Below are positions 6,327-47,001 of a DNA stretch of 64,000 nt, piece after piece (the first letter of the stretch is position 1; each line of letters begins with the position of its first letter). Source of the stretch: a virus (taxonomy: Duplodnaviria > Caudoviricetes); the IMG/VR virus record IMGVR_UViG_3300037541_000451, positions 13,730 to 77,729 of that record, one strand, 5' to 3'. The notes beneath the pieces were generated by a model. The model did not search any database. It saw nothing but the letters and a program-made list of their open reading frames with translations, and was not told the origin of the DNA. The position numbers were made by a program, and so were the translations under genes.

Positions 6327-7514
6327 TTAGGAATGGAATACCGGCAGGATACCTAAGGAAAGCGCCGATGTAGCCTTACGAGCCCAAGTGCCGGAAGTAG
6401 ATGCCAAGGTAGCTGATGCTACAGCGGTAAGAGCCTTTAAATCAGAACCTTCTTGGACCTTCAGATAGTCAGCGTCAGCAGGGAATGCATCTTGCGAACC
6501 AGACCAGTTGTAACCGGCGGGATGCAGCACATAGCCCCAACGATACCACACTGAAGTCGTACCACCACCCTTATAAGCAGCAGCCTTGCGCTCAATTTCG
6601 ACAGAATCAGGAACCATGAGAGGCTCCATTGCGAGCGAACCCGGAAGAACAATGAAAGAAGTCTTTGTACCAACAATATCAACACCAGCACCAGTATTCA
6701 GCTTTGTGAGCTCAGCTGTGCTAAAACCTTGTGAAGCTCTTGTTTGAATAAGTCTAAACTTACCCTGGAAGATGGTATTGAAAGTCACATTACCATCAAC
6801 AACAGTGGTGCTATCAACAAGATTGGCTGAACGAAGTGAAGCAACAGTTTCCGGCGAGCAGATCAGATAGGCAAACTCAGGCTCATAGTCCTTGTAGGCC
6901 ATGCCAAAGGCACGAAGGAAGCCTTCAGCTCGAGCAGCGCCTTGAACTGCAGCAGTAGCGTCGATAACAGGCTTGCTTGAGCCAAGATCCACATAGAAAC
7001 CGTGACGACGGCTTGTAGGATCATTCTCAAAGCTCTGACCGCCAAGACCAGTTTGACCTGAACCAGCAGCGCAACCATTTAAGGCTTCAGAGATAGCAAC
7101 ACCGCGAAGCACCGAAAGGATGGCATTGTGCTCGTCTTGCGCACGTGTTTCACCGAAATCACGGCCAATCTTAGCTAAACCATCGACCTGGGTAACAACT
7201 TGCTGCATGTTAACCTTTGTCGCACCATGCGTACGCACGGTCTTGACATAATTAACGTACTCAGACGAATAAGTCGTACCAGCACCATCACTTGCATCTG
7301 TGAGAGACGCAACGTTGATCGTGGGATTCAAAGGCTTGTACCAACGAACCTGACCAACGAAGGTTTCGGTAGAAGTGTCGATAAGAGGATTGCTACCAAC
7401 GATACCAGTGCCCGAAAGCTTCTTGGCAGTTGTGTAAGCTTCGTCAGAATAGGCGCTAATTGCTTCTTGTAAAACAAAATTGTCGGCACCTGCGACATTA
7501 GTACGAACTGTCAT
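6327..7514 (-). CDS. Major capsid protein
   Basis: 395 aa after scaffold and a phage promoter; higher GC (35/60 at 6901-6960) suggests codon adaptation. Confidence 0.85.
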   Translation of the reverse strand: MTVRTNVAGADNFVLQEAISAYSDEAYTTAKKLSGTGIVGSNPLIDTSTETFVGQVRWYKPLNPTINVASLTDASDGAGTTYSSEYVNYVKTVRTHGATKVNMQQVVTQVDGLAKIGRDFGETRAQDEHNAILSVLRGVAISEALNGCAAGSGQTGLGGQSFENDPTSRRHGFYVDLGSSKPVIDATAAVQGAARAEGFLRAFGMAYKDYEPEFAYLICSPETVASLRSANLVDSTTVVDGNVTFNTIFQGKFRLIQTRASQGFSTAELTKLNTGAGVDIVGTKTSFIVLPGSLAMEPLMVPDSVEIERKAAAYKGGGTTSVWYRWGYVLHPAGYNWSGSQDAFPADADYLKVQEGSDLKALTAVASATLASTSGTWARKATSALSLGILPVFHS

Positions 7515-39842: not shown

Positions 39843-40308
39843 TGGTTATTCCGAAATGCTTTTTAATTAATTCTCTTGCTTGATTAAGTCCGCCAAGATT
39901 AGAGGTAACTCCTTCACTAAATTGTAGTTCACAATCAGCATCGATAACTTTAATAGCATCTTCTATGATTAATTTAGCAAACGTGTTTGCAAATCTTTTG
40001 CTGACAAAATTAAGACCACTTCTATAAACACCACTATGCATCATTGAATTTTTAAGAGCTTCTTCAGCAAGCTCTTTAATTCGATCCGATTGTTCATCAA
40101 GGACCTCCACTCGATCTAACATATAATGTCGTTGCCTGCTGATATTACCATTATTCCACTCAATGTGAACAAAATAACCATCAATATCATCTTCTATATA
40201 GCGGGTGTCTCTATATGCTTCAGTCACTATGCCTTTGGCACCTGTACTACAGCTAATTACCTGCAAGCCTATTACCTTATCGTGCGGAACATCTGAAAGT
40301 TTGGTCAT
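39835..40308 (-). CDS. Hypothetical protein, RIKELA...FA.LI...KHFG family copy 3 (fused)
   Basis: DRIKELAEEA...FAKLIIED...KKHFGITNE. Confidence 0.65.
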   Translation of the reverse strand: MTKLSDVPHDKVIGLQVISCSTGAKGIVTEAYRDTRYIEDDIDGYFVHIEWNNGNISRQRHYMLDRVEVLDEQSDRIKELAEEALKNSMMHSGVYRSGLNFVSKRFANTFAKLIIEDAIKVIDADCELQFSEGVTSNLGGLNQARELIKKHFGITNE

Positions 40309-40602
40309 TCTTCAACTCCAAAATGTGTCTTAATCTGTTTAGCACATGCATCAATCGCACTATTGTGTGCGCTGGCATGAGTGCCCACCATACCTATAAT
40401 GTTTAGGTAACACATTAGCACATTCCCTCACAACCAGTTCCACAAGCTTTGCCTGAAAAATTTCATCGTGAACCCATGTATGCCAATCTTTTTCGGAAAC
40501 TTCTTTATCAGCCTCTTCCCAAGCCTTGCCAACAAGTTCTGCCATTCGTTCGTTCATTTCAGACTCCGAAATGTTTTTCAATATGCTCTGCCACTCTGTC
40601 AA
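40305..40602 (-). pseudogene. Same family, copy 2, frameshifted near 40410
   Basis: Restoring TG in GTG(TG)TTAC gives ELVVRECANVCYL...KQIKTHFGVEE with a stop overlapping the next ATG. Confidence 0.6.
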
Positions 40603-40786
40603 GATAATATCCCTTACCTTTCAAGTCACCAACATCGGCATCATGAATTTCATTGATACATTCCTTGACAATCAACTCTGCGAACTTTGCTGATTGTCTA
40701 GTGGGCATATCACATCCACAACCGCACATTTCTAATCCAGCCTCTACGGCAAGTTGTTTAATTCGTTTTGCTAGTTTGTTATTCAT
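40559..40786 (-). CDS. Same family, copy 1
   Basis: KRIKQLAVEAG...KFAELIVKECI...EKHFGV. Confidence 0.65.
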   Translation of the reverse strand: MNNKLAKRIKQLAVEAGLEMCGCGCDMPTRQSAKFAELIVKECINEIHDADVGDLKGKGYYLDRVAEHIEKHFGV

Positions 40787-40805
40787 CTTAAAAACCTTTT
40801 AAAGA

Positions 40806-40882
40806 TGGTCTGCCCAAAGGGACTCGAACCCCTAACCTACTCCTTAGAAGGGAGTTGCTCTATCCAATTGAGCTATGGGCAG
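40806..40882 (-). tRNA. tRNA-Arg(UCU)
   Basis: Acceptor CTGCCCA/TGGGCAG, anticodon loop CT-TCT-AA, GTTCGA, encoded CCA. Confidence 0.95.
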
Positions 40883-40897
40883 ATATATTAATTTTTA

Positions 40898-41167
40898 TTA
40901 AATTTCACGAGTATCTTTAGTTCTTGCTTTAATAAATTTTAAAATATCACCTCGATGTACTTTTCCTAAATACTGAAACTTTTTTCTACTAGGCCAGTAA
41001 TCAAGACGTCTTTCATTAAGCATTCGCGACCAATGATACTCGGTATGTTTTGTCCATTTACCATCATCGTCTTGAATAGCTTGTTCTAAGAATTTCTTTC
41101 TATCGGCATCGAACTTTTCCTTGGAGTGTTCTTTCAAGATATCCCAAATAGGATCTTTATCATTCAT
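40898..41167 (-). CDS. Hypothetical protein
   Basis: HWSR..RLDYWPSRKKFQY motif. Confidence 0.65.
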   Translation of the reverse strand: MNDKDPIWDILKEHSKEKFDADRKKFLEQAIQDDDGKWTKHTEYHWSRMLNERRLDYWPSRKKFQYLGKVHRGDILKFIKARTKDTREI

Positions 41168-41504
41168 GTACAGAAACCTCTCGAATATGCCAATTAATTA
41201 TACTCCAGTAGGATTCTAAAGATTGATACATTCCACTATATTGCTTACAATGTTCTTGGCTTAATGTTATCAAAATTTCCTGAGCATCTTCTTTACTTGT
41301 AAGAACAGCTGTCTTGACAAGATCATTAGTACAAATTAAGTATACTGTTTTAGTTTTATTCTGAGATGAAAAATTTTCAACCTTTCTTTCTAGATTGCGA
41401 ACGCGATGTTCAAGCTTGTTAAAAACAGATAAAGGAACTTTTTGTTCCATAGACTGCACATGCTCAATATATTCTTTAGTAGGAACTAAGCGAGTCATTA
41501 CCAT
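41160..41504 (-). CDS. Hypothetical protein (paralog domain of 38597..38959)
   Basis: YLICTNDLVKTAVLT...W.I. Confidence 0.65.
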   Translation of the reverse strand: MVMTRLVPTKEYIEHVQSMEQKVPLSVFNKLEHRVRNLERKVENFSSQNKTKTVYLICTNDLVKTAVLTSKEDAQEILITLSQEHCKQYSGMYQSLESYWSIINWHIREVSVHE

Positions 41505-41773
41505 TTCACCTTATCAGCCCAATATGCTGCACTCATTTTGCCCTTAGCAATGTTCTCAGCGTGGCGAGCTTTAAAAGATTCTCTACGAGCTTTGTAAGCT
41601 TCTGATTCACCTTCTTTAGGCGGTGAGCCTTTCACACCTTGAGCACCAAATCTGATAAGCTTTACTGCTTCACCTTCCTTGGCTAATACAGCATGGCTTT
41701 TTGTTGGATGATCTGGAGTTCTTTTAGGATCGTTATAACCCTCAAAAGTTTCTCCTCGATATGTGATACTCAT
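41498..41773 (-). CDS. DUF6321-like basic protein
   Basis: KLIRFGAQG...RRESFKARH...SAAYWADKVKW. Confidence 0.7.
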   Translation of the reverse strand: MSITYRGETFEGYNDPKRTPDHPTKSHAVLAKEGEAVKLIRFGAQGVKGSPPKEGESEAYKARRESFKARHAENIAKGKMSAAYWADKVKW

Positions 41774-42075
41774 AAAAACTCCTCACACTCAATTACTTTA
41801 ATACCTGCTTCTTTGATTGCTAACAAACAAATACTGCAAGGTTTCATCAACTTTAATTCAGTACGATTTTGTTTTTCAATTCTAATCTTATGAATAGGTT
41901 TACCTTTTGCACGAATTATCGCCAATATCTCTGCATGAAGATATATACGATAGTCTTGGTCTGTTTTAGACGCATGCCTTGCTTGAATAGGATGCGTTTT
42001 AGTGTATGAATTCTTAGCAATAGAAATCACTCTACCACGCTTATCGTAAGTAGTAGCTCTTATATCAGACTTCAT
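41770..42075 (-). CDS. Zn-dependent deaminase-fold protein (CDA/dCMP deaminase-like)
   Basis: LHAE...KPCSIC motif. Confidence 0.75.
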   Translation of the reverse strand: MKSDIRATTYDKRGRVISIAKNSYTKTHPIQARHASKTDQDYRIYLHAEILAIIRAKGKPIHKIRIEKQNRTELKLMKPCSICLLAIKEAGIKVIECEEFL

Positions 42076-42583
42076 TGGCTTGGTCTTTAGCGAGCTTATA
42101 AAGTTTGTTAAATCGATTTGACAGGACTCTGATATTAGTCAAAGCAACCTTTGAATTTTCTGTATCATAAAAAGCCCAACGACCTGTTTCTAATTCGAAT
42201 TCAACAGGAATTGCATTTGGTGATTTGTAATAAAAGAATTTAATTCGAAAGGTTTTGGCAAGTGTGTGATCTACAGAAATAGGGATAGAATTTACAATAT
42301 CTTGAAATTCCAAAACTGTTATCAGCTTAGAATTCCATACCACTTCATTCTTTGAATCTAGAATTTCGAAACAAACACGCAGTCTATCTTTAAAAAGTTC
42401 TTGAACTGTAGATTCTTCCGGCTTCCGTAAATTTACAATAGTCAGTTCACCCGTATTCATATCTACAGCGAACGATCGGCCAGATGTAATTACATCGTGA
42501 ACCATATCACTTTGAAATAGTTTCTTTACGGGCTTTACAATCATGAAAACACGATTGTTAATAGTCACAAACTTTCGTTCCAT
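42065..42583 (-). CDS. Hypothetical protein
   Basis: 172 aa open frame. Confidence 0.65.
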   Translation of the reverse strand: MERKFVTINNRVFMIVKPVKKLFQSDMVHDVITSGRSFAVDMNTGELTIVNLRKPEESTVQELFKDRLRVCFEILDSKNEVVWNSKLITVLEFQDIVNSIPISVDHTLAKTFRIKFFYYKSPNAIPVEFELETGRWAFYDTENSKVALTNIRVLSNRFNKLYKLAKDQANEV

Positions 42584-42618
42584 TTTAAGCTTTCTAAGAT
42601 AAAATTATTTGCGTTTAA

Positions 42619-42744
42619 AACCGTACATATAAGTCAGCTGCCTTGTACTGTTTTGATAAGTCTTGTTGGCCAGACGACTTATCCTCAATCACGACTTGGT
42701 CCTTCGTCGCGAGCTTACAAAGCAGCTGAATTATATGTACGGTT
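42619..42744 (-). ncRNA. Unassigned structured RNA candidate (126 nt)
   Basis: 23-bp closing stem with one mismatch (42619-42641/42722-42744) enclosing two internal hairpins; begins 7 nt after the tRNA-Leu CCA. Confidence 0.6.
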
Positions 42745-42751
42745 AAATAAA

Positions 42752-42840
42752 TGGTGCCCGGAGCGGGGATCGAACCCGCACGACGTTTTATTGCCGACGG
42801 ATTTTAAGTCCGTTGTGTCTACCGATTTCACCATCCGGGC
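42752..42840 (-). tRNA. tRNA-Leu(UAA)
   Basis: GCCCGGA/TCCGGGC, long variable arm, loop CT-TAA-AA, CCA. Confidence 0.95.
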
Positions 42841-42848
42841 TAAGTTAA

Positions 42849-43220
42849 TTAATCGTTAATGATATATTCTTGAAATTCTTCTGGAATTATTACATTTGAA
42901 GGTGATCCTGCAAACATCGGACCAATTTGATCCGGAGTAAAACCAGCTAAACCACAGCCAATGGGAGTTAGTTTAAATTTGAGATGACTTCTTGACTTAG
43001 CAAATTCTTTGAATTTTTCAACATGTTGCGCAATTTCGTCTAACGTTAAACTTTTATACGGCGTTGATTTCGTAGGAATAGCATAAGAAGCACCTTGAAG
43101 TCCTTCTCCAACGCCTAACTTAGCTCCATATCTTTCCAAAGCTGTTTTAGCTGATCCAGCTCCGTGAATACCTTGACGATTACTTCCAAATACAAAAATC
43201 GTATCGGTAAGTTTTTTCAT
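42849..43220 (-). CDS. Conserved phage protein (A1S_2505-like)
   Basis: IFVFGSN..GIHGAG.A...G.GEGLQG.SYAIPTK...TPIGCGLAG. Confidence 0.7.
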   Translation of the reverse strand: MKKLTDTIFVFGSNRQGIHGAGSAKTALERYGAKLGVGEGLQGASYAIPTKSTPYKSLTLDEIAQHVEKFKEFAKSRSHLKFKLTPIGCGLAGFTPDQIGPMFAGSPSNVIIPEEFQEYIIND

Positions 43221-43458
43221 TTAGGTTGTAGCTAGCTCCAACTCGAGTTTGTCAAGTGTTTCCTTAAGCTCTTCTCGCGATTTTAAGAAAAGGTCGTAAT
43301 TATGCCCCTTGAAATCAGTTGCAGCGACAGCCATTGCATCAGCTAATTCTAGGATATGTTGTTTTTCTTGTTTTAGTTGACCTGAATCCATATTATCTTC
43401 CTTTATAGCTGAGATATATCAGCCACGCGTGCTACCCATTCAGCTTATAAAGGTAAAT

Positions 43459-43650
43459 TCAGTAGTCTACTTGAAAATCATCCATATCATCTTTTAGACA
43501 ACTGTTACAAATACTATACTTATTTGTAATAGGGAGTTTAGCACCACAGACACAAATCATATTTAATTGTCTGCCGGTCTCTGAATCGTAGTCTGGGCAA
43601 CAGCCCAACTCGTGTCCGCAACAAGGAAAATCTTCACATCTAGCGGCCAT
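43459..43650 (-). CDS. Small Cys-rich hypothetical protein
   Basis: CEDFPCCGH...C.CG...C..C. Confidence 0.6.
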   Translation of the reverse strand: MAARCEDFPCCGHELGCCPDYDSETGRQLNMICVCGAKLPITNKYSICNSCLKDDMDDFQVDY

Positions 43651-43687
43651 AAGTGTCCTTAAATAAATTGTTTAAAAATCTATCATA

Positions 43688-43763
43688 TGGCTCCACGACC
43701 TGGATTCGAACCAGGGACCAACAAATTAACAGTCTGCTGCTCTACCGACTGAGCTATCGTGGA
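43688..43763 (-). tRNA. tRNA-Asn(GUU)
   Basis: TCCACGA/TCGTGGA, loop CT-GTT-AA, CCA. Confidence 0.95.
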
Positions 43764-43939
43764 ACAGTTTCTAATAGTGCGCCTACAATTGTTCTTTCAA
43801 TCTCAGCAAAAATTTTATGTTTGTTTACATTATCCTTAAGATTGTTTTCAAGTCTGAGACAAATGCATTCTGAATACATTATAGCTTTTCGATATAATAT
43901 ATAGTCTAATGTCTTAAGTTGTGAATGTAGATCTTGCAT
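43754..43939 (-). CDS. Hypothetical protein between tRNAs
   Basis: Fills the spacer; last codons overlap the tRNA-Asn 5' end. Confidence 0.4.
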   Translation of the reverse strand: MQDLHSQLKTLDYILYRKAIMYSECICLRLENNLKDNVNKHKIFAEIERTIVGALLETVPR

Positions 43940-43945
43940 AGTTAA

Positions 43946-44021
43946 TGGTGCCGCTTATCTGACTCGAACAGATGACCTACCGATTACAAATCGGTTGCTC
44001 TACCAACTGAGCTAAAGCGGC
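43946..44021 (-). tRNA. tRNA-Thr(UGU)
   Basis: GCCGCTT/AAGCGGC, loop TT-TGT-AA, CCA. Confidence 0.95.
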
Positions 44022-44228
44022 TTAATTTGTTCTCTCAATCTTCCAAAAAGTTGTATTTATAGATTCGTTAACTTCTAATGCAAGAACATAATTTTTCCAA
44101 AACCACCGATTATCCATCGTAGAACCTCTAACGGTATCTTTACAAGTCAACCAGTCCGGTGCATTAATTTCATTAAATTCCAAGATTTTGTTAGAGAAGT
44201 ATAGATGGGTTGCTTTAAATTCTTTCAT
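44022..44228 (-). CDS. Hypothetical protein
   Basis: Stop abuts the tRNA-Thr 5' end. Confidence 0.6.
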   Translation of the reverse strand: MKEFKATHLYFSNKILEFNEINAPDWLTCKDTVRGSTMDNRWFWKNYVLALEVNESINTTFWKIERTN

Positions 44229-44232
44229 ACTT

Positions 44233-44586
44233 TTAAGTCAACGAAATCCGAAGCTTCCGTTGAATTGCAGAAAGCCTTTTATAAGCATTTTGTAGCTTGT
44301 CACGCTTTGAAAAGAATCGATTTTTCTTAGTATTCGAATAGAACTTAATTGCTTCAGATCTTTCTGAATTATATTCTTCAAGATCAAGTGTCATTAAATT
44401 TAATTGTCCACGAAGCACAGTACGTAGATATTGTGCTTCTTGCTGAGTTAAACTTATTAGAACTTCTGATGATAGTTTTGACTCATTCGTTTCAGGTGAA
44501 TTACGAAAGTTGTTAGCATCAGTAAAAGTCATTTTTTCAATCCATTTATTAAACCAATCGTTTAAAGTATTCATATTAACTCCCAT
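44233..44586 (-). CDS. Hypothetical protein
   Basis: Packed, same strand. Confidence 0.55.
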   Translation of the reverse strand: MGVNMNTLNDWFNKWIEKMTFTDANNFRNSPETNESKLSSEVLISLTQQEAQYLRTVLRGQLNLMTLDLEEYNSERSEAIKFYSNTKKNRFFSKRDKLQNAYKRLSAIQRKLRISLT

Positions 44587-44776
44587 TATAAACTCTATCA
44601 GAAATATCTACACCATGAAAATCGGTATAAAACTCTTCATATCTACCTTCGCTACTGCATGAACGCCTATGTGGACAATCTACATGAGAGCATTCCCATT
44701 GAGCAGTAGTTTCAATGTTACTTTTATGGTGAGTCTTTTTCTGACATATAACACAAATAGATTTTTCAGGCTTCAT
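44576..44776 (-). CDS. Small Zn-finger-like protein
   Basis: C..C...C..VDC..R..C. Confidence 0.55.
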   Translation of the reverse strand: MKPEKSICVICQKKTHHKSNIETTAQWECSHVDCPHRRSCSSEGRYEEFYTDFHGVDISDRVYNGS

Positions 44777-44796
44777 TAAAGACTCCTGTAAAAGAA

Positions 44797-45069
44797 TTAT
44801 TTGTTAAAGCCATTTCTAAGAATTTTTCGAATGCTTTTTTGAATTTTTTCTTTTCTTTTTATTTCTTCTGTTAAATCACGCTCATATTGTCTATAGTAAT
44901 TTAGTAACTTAAAAGAATTTTGAACAGAGCTGTCATCTTTGTTTATATAGTCACATTTATGATAATAGTATTTTGCCTTATCTCTGGCGCGCTCCTTTTC
45001 AATATGGAGCTCATTTAATTGATCTTTTAAGATAGACTCGAAAAATTGCAAAGAGGAATTGTCTAGCAT
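44797..45069 (-). CDS. Hypothetical coiled-coil protein
   Basis: AGGAG SD. Confidence 0.6.
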   Translation of the reverse strand: MLDNSSLQFFESILKDQLNELHIEKERARDKAKYYYHKCDYINKDDSSVQNSFKLLNYYRQYERDLTEEIKRKEKIQKSIRKILRNGFNK

Positions 45070-45081
45070 TTTCGCTCCTAA

Positions 45082-45119
45082 TGGTAGGCCGGGTCGGATT
45101 CGAACCGACGGCTAAACGA
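45082..45119 (-). pseudogene. 3' half of a disrupted tRNA
   Basis: TCGTT-TAGCC-GTCGG TTCGAAT CCGAC-CCGGCCT-A-CCA. Confidence 0.85.
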
Positions 45120-45196
45120 TGGTGAGACCGATGGGACTCGAACCCATAACCCGCATCTTATGAGGATGACGCTCTAACCGATTGAGCTACAGTCTC
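45120..45196 (-). tRNA. tRNA with CAU anticodon (Met elongator-like; Ile2 not excluded)
   Basis: GAGACTG/CGGTCTC, loop CT-CAT-AA, CCA. Confidence 0.9.
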
Positions 45197-45202
45197 TGTC
45201 AC

Positions 45203-45679
45203 TTAACTTGAAAAATCTCTATGGATATTTCTTACAAATTCATTTCTAACCGCGACAGCTTCGTTTACAGTTTTAAATTTAGGAGTTCTATATTGCTTAC
45301 CATTCAATCCGCATTCAACATAATACAAACCGGACTTCGTTTTATAAATATTTTTGATACCAGATGATGAATTTGAAGATACCTTTCTATTTAAGTTGTT
45401 CTCAATATTTGAACACTTTCTTAAATTAGAGATCTTGTTGTTGACTCGATTTCTGTCGATATGATCAATAAGATCAAAATCGTTCAAAAATCCATATACA
45501 TAAATCCAGATTAATCGATGAGCTTGATAAAATTTATTATCAATTCTGATATGGCGGTATCCTCTTGAATTCACAGTACCTGCAATAGTACCGATTTTAG
45601 CAATACCTCTGTTTTCTTTCCATATCAAATTTTCACCATCGTAATCAAATAATTGTTTTAAATACTTTTGTGTTATCAT
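45203..45679 (-). CDS. Free-standing HNH homing endonuclease with AP2-like C-terminus
   Basis: AHRLIW...IDHIDRNRVNNKISNLR...SGIKNIY. Confidence 0.9.
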   Translation of the reverse strand: MITQKYLKQLFDYDGENLIWKENRGIAKIGTIAGTVNSRGYRHIRIDNKFYQAHRLIWIYVYGFLNDFDLIDHIDRNRVNNKISNLRKCSNIENNLNRKVSSNSSSGIKNIYKTKSGLYYVECGLNGKQYRTPKFKTVNEAVAVRNEFVRNIHRDFSS

Positions 45680-45702
45680 TTTTACTTTAAAGTAAATAGA
45701 TA

Positions 45703-45729
45703 TTACTCTAACCGCTGAGTTACCGGCCC
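45703..45729 (-). pseudogene. 5' half of the disrupted tRNA
   Basis: GGGCCGG-TA-ACTC-AGCGGTTA-GAGT; GGGCCGG pairs with CCGGCCT of the 45082-45119 fragment. Confidence 0.8.
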
Positions 45730-46092
45730 TGTGTTTTAGAAACCTATATTCTCAATATAGGCAAGTTCTATTCTGATTTTTGAATTTGCTGGAATATAAT
45801 GTTGAACAATTAATACGCTAACCAGTTGTTCTGCCTGAGACTCGCTCTTTAATATGGCAAACAACCGATTGTTTATAAATAATCTAAAACAGTTTCCCAT
45901 ATAATTACTGACCTCTATAAACTGACACTTATTTTAAGAACAGTAGCAATTGCTATAATCAAAACCATAAGAGAAAGTGTTCCTACGAGATATAAAAAAG
46001 AATCTTCAAGTGAGCCTGTAATATGATAAAAACAAAAGAAGGTGGCAACTAAAATCAATGTTACTACAATAAATTCCATTTCAATCCCTTTA

Positions 46093-46189
<97 letters not shown>

Positions 46190-46330
46190 ATAAAACTCTT
46201 AAAAAGCAGGGAGACAGGCTGCTGATTAAAAGTTTTTAAAGACAGTTTCCAGACGTGTCTAGGTCATGAGACTGACTGCAGACTGAAACAGAGGGGCATC
46301 TGCAACTTACTGCAGCAATGTCTCTATTTC

Positions 46331-46909
46331 TCACGCAGGCGTAATTTCCGTTGAAGCGGTCTTGGCAGCCTTTTCAGCAGCCATCTTCGCACGGTAAGCA
46401 GCAAGACCTTCAGCGGCCTTAGGATTAAGTTCACGCTTGACTTCTCCAGCGCTATAAGCTGACATGACTTCATCCTTGTTCGCGATGATCCAGTCAGAAA
46501 GATCAGTGTTATTCTCGCTAGCAGCCATCAGAGTGTTACGAGCAGCCGTCTTCTTCTCATCATCATTCATACGCTTGACGCTAGGCCAGCGGAATGAATC
46601 AAGGATTGCAGCGGCGTTCTCTTGCAGGAACACCAGATCCTTGTCGTTGATGGTCTTAAGATGATCAAGAGCCTTATTAAGCTTCTTGTACTCAACCTTC
46701 GTAACACGGCGGATTTGACCGACCTCGAAAGCCATTTCAACTGTCTCTTGGTTTTCGATCAGCCAATTTACAAGATCTTTATTGTTCTTAGTAAGACGCA
46801 GCAGCGCCTCTTCAATCTTAGGACGGCGAAGATAATCCAGAGCCTCCTTCTTGGTTTCGAACATCTTACCATCGGGAGTCGTGAATACTTGCTTCAATTC
46901 CATTATCAT
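46331..46909 (-). CDS. Probably highly expressed hypothetical protein with internal duplication
   Basis: Own promoter copy upstream; GC 31/60 at 46381-46440; repeats NNKDLVNWLIENQETV / NNTDLSDWIIANKDEV. Confidence 0.8.
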   Translation of the reverse strand: MIMELKQVFTTPDGKMFETKKEALDYLRRPKIEEALLRLTKNNKDLVNWLIENQETVEMAFEVGQIRRVTKVEYKKLNKALDHLKTINDKDLVFLQENAAAILDSFRWPSVKRMNDDEKKTAARNTLMAASENNTDLSDWIIANKDEVMSAYSAGEVKRELNPKAAEGLAAYRAKMAAEKAAKTASTEITPA

Positions 46910-47001
46910 TCCTTTAGCGCACAGCGCTATTGTTTAAGAAATCGTAGCACATGCTACATATAAGATACCGCATTTTTCGTACGGCTACTTATTCAGAATA
47001 A

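Follow-up and report, generated by a model that had tools for sequence, protein, structure and literature searches.

What is a tRNA gene doing in two pieces, with a homing-type nuclease gene and a second, intact tRNA gene between them? The arrangement occurs in the window, the whole 64,000-nt stretch of phage DNA that we analyzed, in which the phage genes all lie on the minus strand. The phage appears to be a virulent one of lake water and has no close relative in culture. An earlier note, made from the sequence alone, had described, in transcription order, a tRNA 5′ half, an HNH ORF, an intact tRNA(CAU), and a tRNA 3′ half starting directly after the CCA, and had read the whole as an intron-less homing unit. 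We found every one of these elements at its place on the minus strand. The locus probably represents a mobile cassette of ~583 nt (leader, I-HmuI-type HNH gene, and linked tRNA(CAU)), inserted in the anticodon arm of a resident Ile2-type tRNA(CAU), that would spread by homing and carry immunity to its own nuclease.

A cassette inserted in a resident tRNA gene

The features of the locus are as follows.

45729–45704, minus strand: 5′ remnant of the resident tRNA(CAU), positions 1–26 (read directly)
45703–45680, minus strand: leader of 24 nt, beginning with ATATCTATT
45695–45703, minus strand: left-end motif of the insert, ATATCTATT (from the upstream sequences of nine nuclease homologues)
45696–45681, minus strand: perfect 16-nt palindrome, TTTACTTTAAAGTAAA, forming a hairpin with a 6-bp stem and a 4-nt loop
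45203–45679, minus strand: ORF of 158 aa, HNH_3 (I-HmuI-type) homing endonuclease (Pfam PF13392, phrog_99)
45196–45120, minus strand: linked intact tRNA(CAU), CCA encoded (ARAGORN; Rfam tRNA, 66.1 bits)
45119–45082, minus strand: 3′ remnant of the resident tRNA, positions 39–76, directly 3′ of the linked-tRNA CCA (read directly)

The 5′ remnant (G1–A26) comprises the acceptor strand GGGCCGG, U8 and A9, the D arm, and A26, and the 3′ remnant comprises TCGTT, the variable loop TAGCC, the T arm, the acceptor strand CCGGCCT, A73, and CCA. The A at 45120 is ambiguous, being either the final CCA base or A38. The two acceptor strands form 7/7 pairs, including G1·U72, the single G·U pair that the earlier note had counted. 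That note also had the anticodon loop missing; the loop is indeed gone, but the loss is larger, with resident positions 27–37, anticodon included, replaced and absent from the window. No joining of the remnants could therefore give a decoding tRNA, and the two are an insertion scar, unable to yield a working tRNA. A motif scan of all 64 kb returned no other convincing orphan tRNA D-arm or T-arm fragments.

The remnants are not chance resemblances, because their 25-nt cores match exactly, 24 nt apart, in the same single IMG/VR contig (L001), where they belong to one 76-nt tRNA (L001:118–193, minus strand; 68.4 bits, Rfam tRNA). This intact resident-type tRNA is identical to both remnants over 64/64 nt, which are joined there by 11 nt, GACGACTCATA. 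The supposition that an intact allele unites the two halves is thereby borne out; it carries a CAT anticodon in an Ile2-like arm, GACGA-CTCATAA-TCGTT, in keeping with what had been suggested from TCGTT. The L001 locus is syntenic with the window, having small ORFs, the start of a Cys/His-containing ORF downstream, and a 192-aa protein upstream, which at 68% identity places this sole intact copy in a fairly distant phage, of another population than the window phage. Comparison with this allele shows that ~583 nt replaced resident tRNA positions 27–37 in the window. That the remnants are unchanged over 64 nt relative to the working tRNA of a distant phage points to a recent insertion.

Elsewhere around the locus, a 90-aa ORF without a family match (44797–45069, minus strand) lies between the 3′ remnant and a 66-aa Cys/His ORF; it is absent in L001, where the Cys/His ORF directly follows the tRNA. 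A long homopolymer-like A/T run at 46083–46137, one frame of which reads as a lysine run, lies between two small ORFs and is a repeat where contigs break.

The broken tRNA, read from its intact copy in L001, combines a CAU anticodon with G3–C70, C4–G69, and C5–G68, the acceptor-stem discriminators of Ile2 (PMC1635315). According to Silva et al. 2006 (PMC1635315), who covered 234 bacterial genomes, G3/C70 excludes Met and fMet, and tRNA-Ile(CAT) often has C4–G69 and C5–G68. In E. coli, the broken tRNA is matched best by tRNAs that PGAP annotates as tRNA-Ile with a CAT anticodon, and they share with it the 5′ anticodon-stem strand and loop, GACGA-CTCATAA, as well as G1·U72. AUA is used in the phage at 13.5 per 1000 codons, and other tRNAs of the phage read the A-ending codons AGA, UUA, and ACA (ARAGORN). 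With these discriminators, matches, codon usage, and companion tRNAs, an AUA-reading Ile2 fits both the sequence of the broken tRNA and the likely need of the phage. GenBank labels of the two CAU tRNA types in phages are mixed (Met, Ile, Arg, or none), too inconsistent to name either of them.

The nuclease gene within the cassette matches Pfam HNH_3 (PF13392; E 8.8e-10; 38.5 bits, with the curated cut-off at 24.8) and phrog_99 (E 1.8e-52). Residues D72, H73, N81, N85, N94, and N97, forming a D-H...N...N motif, are invariant among 11 homologues and align to the I-HmuI core, and the family profile matches I-HmuI (PDB 1U3E) with an E of 3.5e-9. Among cultured phages, its best matches come from T5-like phages (HNH genes, 42% identity); the best of these that we inspected lies between the SSB and SbcD genes, away from tRNAs. 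A candidate second nuclease near tRNA-Leu (172-aa ORF, 42065–42583) was rejected, as neither Pfam nor PHROG gave a match and it shows no relation to the HNH_3 gene of L005 that also encodes 172 aa.

Recurrence in different host tRNAs and movement between backbones

Homologues of the nuclease, at 50–79% identity, occur in six other phage lineages represented by metagenomic contigs. In every readable case a 5′ tRNA remnant precedes the nuclease and an intact CAU tRNA directly follows it, and in four other loci (L005, L006, L017, and L019) a 3′ remnant is present as well.

L005: nuclease 78% identical; the window's junctions and a linked tRNA matching at 77/77 nt, in a different host tRNA (GGGCTGT...ACAGCCT)
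L006 and L017: nuclease 67% and 66% identical; unit nested in a third host tRNA, with both remnants
L019: nuclease 50% identical; fourth host tRNA, the 3′ remnant retaining (A)TAA of the anticodon loop
L007, L011, L013, and L018: nuclease 49–53% identical; 5′ remnant, nuclease, and CAU tRNA, with no 3′ remnant

The five split host tRNAs (those of the window, L005, L006, L017, and L019) show 6–7/7 acceptor, 4/4 D, and 5/5 T pairs, and the other hosts differ from that of the window by 4–7 compensatory double changes. Two separated halves would have no reason to co-evolve, so each host diverged while still functional, before the insertion. Nuclease and backbone are discordant: in the backbone protein p192, the window and L005 share 65% identity against 86% for L005 and L007, but in the nuclease the window and L005 are the closer pair (78%, against 55%). 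L005 and L007 carry different nuclease lineages and linked tRNAs despite having one and the same host 5′ remnant. The locus thus presents two marks of a homing element, an empty site (L001) alongside occupied ones (the window, L005, L006, L017, and L019) and nuclease/backbone discordance. Together, the recurrence before a CAU tRNA, the compensatory host differences, and the discordance indicate that the cassette moved between phages. The intron-less homing unit of the earlier note gains support from the same discordance and from the units nested in L005, L006, L017, and L019.

The positions of the junctions locate the event in the anticodon arm. On the left, the junction falls at tRNA position 23 in L007, at 26–28 in the window, L005, L017, and L019, and at ~12 in L013; on the right, it falls between positions 35 and 39. 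When the upstream sequences of nine homologues were compared, the motif ATATCTATT was found at the same place in other lineages as (A)TATCTA(T/G)T.

Purifying selection acts on the nuclease, to judge from the window and L005, whose genes are 78% identical with a dN/dS of 0.09 and a dS of 1.43. The adjacent linked tRNAs of this pair are identical (77/77), and those of all lineages score 62–74 bits against the Rfam tRNA model, which, with the low dN/dS, argues that selection maintains both cargo genes.

Two of the related loci differ in the tRNA that they carry or in gene order. The cargo tRNA of L007 (3450–3525) has the same first 26 nt as the window's broken tRNA (45704–45729) and a different anticodon stem (GCTCC/GGTGT, with a U29·U41 mismatch); judged by this shared half, the same tRNA lineage is the victim in the window phage and the spare in L007. 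In L020 (1380–2050), a nuclease homologue of 46% identity stands in another order, with a 5′ remnant (...TAACTTAGTGGTTAAAGTA) fused to an intact tRNA(CAU), then the HNH gene, then a tRNA-Arg(UCU).

Other searches extended the survey. None of 119 IMG/VR loci sharing the common CAU-tRNA 5′ half contained a nuclease homologue. When viral and genome contigs were scanned for TATCTATT and ATGATAAC separated by 8–30 nt, the matches listed were chance occurrences without a related nuclease (tblastn). The related-locus search of IMG/VR gave no confirmed relative of the neighboring 192-aa protein. The viral record G001 ends inside the nuclease gene, and no tRNA was called in it. Lake-water metagenomes carry the window stretch as short identical contig pieces, none of which bridges the cassette or has an empty site.

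The palindrome that the earlier note had placed before the HNH start (45681–45696) is exact over its 16 nt, and its hairpin ends 1 nt ahead of the A preceding the nuclease ATG. The window hairpin is weak (−2.3 kcal/mol, z −1.7), as are its counterparts individually (−1.3 to −4.3 kcal/mol). A small hairpin (−2.1 to −4.3 kcal/mol) nevertheless lies just 5′ of the start codon in 7/8 lineages, with differing stem sequences (TTCATT/AATGAA, TTAAG/CTTAA, TTAAC/GTTAA, and TATCC/GGATA, at the same position in L005, L007, L006, L017, L019, and L013). This recurrence backs the palindrome as a conserved feature, even though each hairpin is weak. Placed at the ribosome-binding region, the hairpin probably keeps nuclease expression low. 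In six lineages, U8-A9-R10 of the linked tRNA doubles as the nuclease stop codon, and cleavage by RNase P would therefore trim the mRNA; in the window, the stop codon lies 6 nt 5′ of the tRNA. Overlap of ORF and tRNA has been discussed for T4 segB and tRNA-Arg as a means of keeping nuclease levels low (PMC2330249). Sigma-70 promoters and intrinsic terminators showed no excess over shuffled sequence around the cassette.

The linked tRNA and competing explanations

The linked tRNA follows the nuclease ORF after a spacer of 6 nt, and an exact search of IMG/VR found no copy of it outside the cassette. It retains G3–C70 and C5–G68, but it has A4–U69 and A29–U41 where the split tRNA has C4–G69 and C29–G41. 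The latter pairs are E. coli IleRS determinants, and C4–G69 is also a TilS determinant. The element could thus be mobile while its linked tRNA is no replacement at all: an elongator Met tRNA, or a habitual neighbor dragged along by co-conversion, would leave the phage deprived of its AUA-reading tRNA, with the broken gene as collateral damage. Besides these two pairs, such an account can draw on the overall identity of the linked tRNA, higher with E. coli metT (78%) than with an Ile2-type tRNA of that species (70%), and on SegB homing, which carries flanking tRNA genes (PMC2330249). It has to contend with G3–C70, present in 7/8 linked tRNAs and reported to exclude Met and fMet (PMC1635315), with the Ile2-type acceptor stems of the linked tRNAs of L007 and L018, and with the AUA usage and A-ending codons noted above. 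The very tight linkage, with the ORF stop inside the tRNA in six lineages, likewise speaks against this account. We consider it unlikely that the linked tRNA is a mere passenger and lean toward its being an Ile2.

The linked tRNA also differs from the cassette's putative targets in the anticodon arm, which reads UCAUC-CUCAUAA-GAUGC. Of the intact phage CAU tRNAs whose 5′ half is the common one found in L019's host, 66 are distinct; purines at 30–31 with pyrimidines at 39–40 occur in 91% of these (59% as GA...TC), and one is reversed. Among the eight distinct linked tRNAs, six show the reversed state, with pyrimidines at 30–31, and none (0/8) has GA...TC or GG...CC. Pairing is kept while the DNA beside the loop is re-coded, as expected of a copy that escapes its own nuclease, and the rebuilt lower anticodon stems would fit immunity to cutting. 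The unusual bases at 30–31 could instead mirror tRNA class, if the linked tRNA were an elongator Met; L007 and L018, however, have altered lower stems despite Ile2-type acceptor stems.

The arrangement might also be a fossil, an old insertion whose nuclease no longer homes or has been reused and whose layout is inherited vertically. The whole arrangement is identical in several lake metagenomes, and an empty site was unseen in the same population, though the pieces are short and none bridges the cassette. We regard a fossil as improbable, given remnants that match at 64/64 nt the working tRNA of a phage with a 68% identical neighboring protein, a cassette residing in host tRNAs that differ by compensatory changes, the discordance of nuclease and backbone similarity, and a nuclease dN/dS of 0.09. 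Less probable still is that the insert is removed at the RNA level, as an intron or by tRNA processing and a ligase, or that the paired remnants still function. The remnants do pair perfectly, RNase P and 3′ processing would excise the linked tRNA, and the passages on Lak megaphages describe tRNA "introns" that may encode a tRNA (PMC6784885). Such rescue conflicts with the absence of positions 27–37 and the anticodon from the window, and with the complete loss of the 3′ remnant in three to four lineages. No ribozyme or intron family was matched at 40000–47000 (E up to 10) or, at gathering score, in ten related loci. A group I intron was rejected specifically, as no ribozyme core was matched and the flanks do not join into a complete tRNA, 27–37 being missing.

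A proposed homing route and its known counterparts

For the mobile cassette with a replacement tRNA, we propose the following route. In a co-infecting phage whose CAU tRNA gene is intact, the enzyme would nick or cut the DNA of the anticodon arm. The cassette-bearing genome would then serve as repair template, aligned through the conserved D arm and T arm and through the flanks, and repair would copy the cassette in, amounting to homing without an intron. The linked tRNA, which has the same anticodon and a purine/pyrimidine swap at pairs 30–40 and 31–39, is proposed to be immune to cutting on account of these swapped pairs, and it would keep a CAU tRNA available to the phage.

Several known systems resemble parts of this layout. 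I-HmuI of Bacillus phage SPO1 (PDB 1U3E), which nicks one strand, has the HNH core and catalytic motif of the cassette nuclease, but its gene sits within a DNA polymerase gene, inside a group I intron, whereas the cassette nuclease is intron-less and lies in a tRNA gene. For the F-Tfl enzymes of phage T5, we know of no report of tRNA gene splitting or of carriage of a substitute. These site-specific endonucleases are of the HNH family and lie inside a phage tRNA gene cluster, as does the cassette nuclease by family and setting, according to a 2004 description as cited in PMC2330249.

SegB of T4 and T6, a free-standing GIY-YIG homing endonuclease in a tRNA gene cluster (PMC2330249, PMC13096335), is like the cassette in being a phage nuclease among tRNA genes that lacks an intron and spreads with neighboring tRNA genes. 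Its recognition site lies inside tRNA gene sequence, at a T-arm motif, where the cassette's target would be the anticodon arm, and its ORF abuts the next tRNA so that processing clips the mRNA, comparable to the stop codon inside the linked tRNA in six cassette lineages. The two differ in that SegB is GIY-YIG and lies between intact tRNA genes, whereas the cassette is HNH and lies inside a broken one; a same-anticodon spare tRNA is not described for SegB, and the cassette brings one. More generally, elements of the SegB/SegG/MobE type place the nuclease beside an intact, resistant target. In the cassette, the nuclease lies inside the broken target, and the resistant copy, if such it is, is a second gene.

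Mobile elements are also found in the anticodon region of tRNA genes as group I introns, the cyanobacterial tRNA-fMet intron with I-Ssp6803I and the Azoarcus tRNA-Ile(CAU) intron being examples. Such introns occupy bacterial tRNA anticodon loops (PMC3984707), and the cassette is like them in lying in the anticodon region of a CAU tRNA gene. They restore the tRNA by self-splicing, whereas the cassette has 11 nt of its host deleted and no ribozyme detected, and tRNA function would be covered, if at all, by the second tRNA gene. In Lak megaphages, "enigmatic" tRNA introns, one of which may encode a tRNA (PMC6784885), resemble the cassette as described there in having a tRNA-like gene nested in a phage tRNA gene and in varying in presence between genomes. 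The passages concerned describe the inserts as introns and, unlike the present case, give no nuclease gene or homing model; these tRNA-encoding "introns" may be a glimpse of the same thing. Set against these systems, the window cassette would be an intron-less homing element whose nuclease lies inside its broken target together with a same-anticodon tRNA. We found no literature description of this layout of split tRNA, nuclease, and spare tRNA.

Other phage CAU tRNAs are interrupted as well. In L357 (4830–5390, minus strand), a phage CAU tRNA with the common 5′ half has a ~470-nt insert after A37, its 3′ part resuming from A38. The insert consists almost entirely of a 136-aa PD-(D/E)XK ORF (Pfam PDDEXK_5, E 1e-22), of the family that includes I-Ssp6803I. 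With E values up to 1 allowed, neither a group I intron nor any other ribozyme family was matched; the non-ORF sequence looks too short for a ribozyme, and the leader also contains ATATCTAT. In L312 (556–1420), a phage tRNA cluster includes a CAU tRNA broken exactly after A26 by a 227-aa ORF with a weak Phage_endo_I match (E 0.004); 3′ of that ORF, the tRNA resumes with its anticodon arm, CAAC-CTCATAA-GTTG, and runs on to its end. In L323 (minus strand; 5′ half from reverse-complement position 6954), a CAU-type tRNA has a ~150-nt insert without an ORF between its anticodon stem strands (GCTGG ... CCAGA), a length that seems short for a group I intron.

In the usual view, homing endonucleases persist in essential or useful genes only when hidden in self-splicing introns or inteins, or when placed beside the gene. 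The cassette and its relatives suggest a third route, in which the gene is broken and a differently built copy is brought along, so that a conserved RNA gene becomes open to a selfish element that has no intron to splice itself out. With moderate confidence, we suggest that splitting and replacing is a general, hitherto undescribed way for homing endonucleases to colonize conserved phage tRNA genes, the nuclease traveling together with a spare tRNA of the same anticodon whose anticodon stem is re-coded by purine/pyrimidine swaps, still paired but uncuttable. If true, such an element could destroy its target without a self-splicing intron and would drive the diversification of phage tRNA anticodon stems. 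The loci would also supply natural pairs of putative target and immune sequences for an HNH enzyme reading the tRNA anticodon arm, and they may account in part for the orphan tRNA halves and "tRNA introns" that are annotated in phages. Beside codon usage and anti-defense needs, selfish nucleases may thus shape the tRNA sets of phages and the build of their stems.
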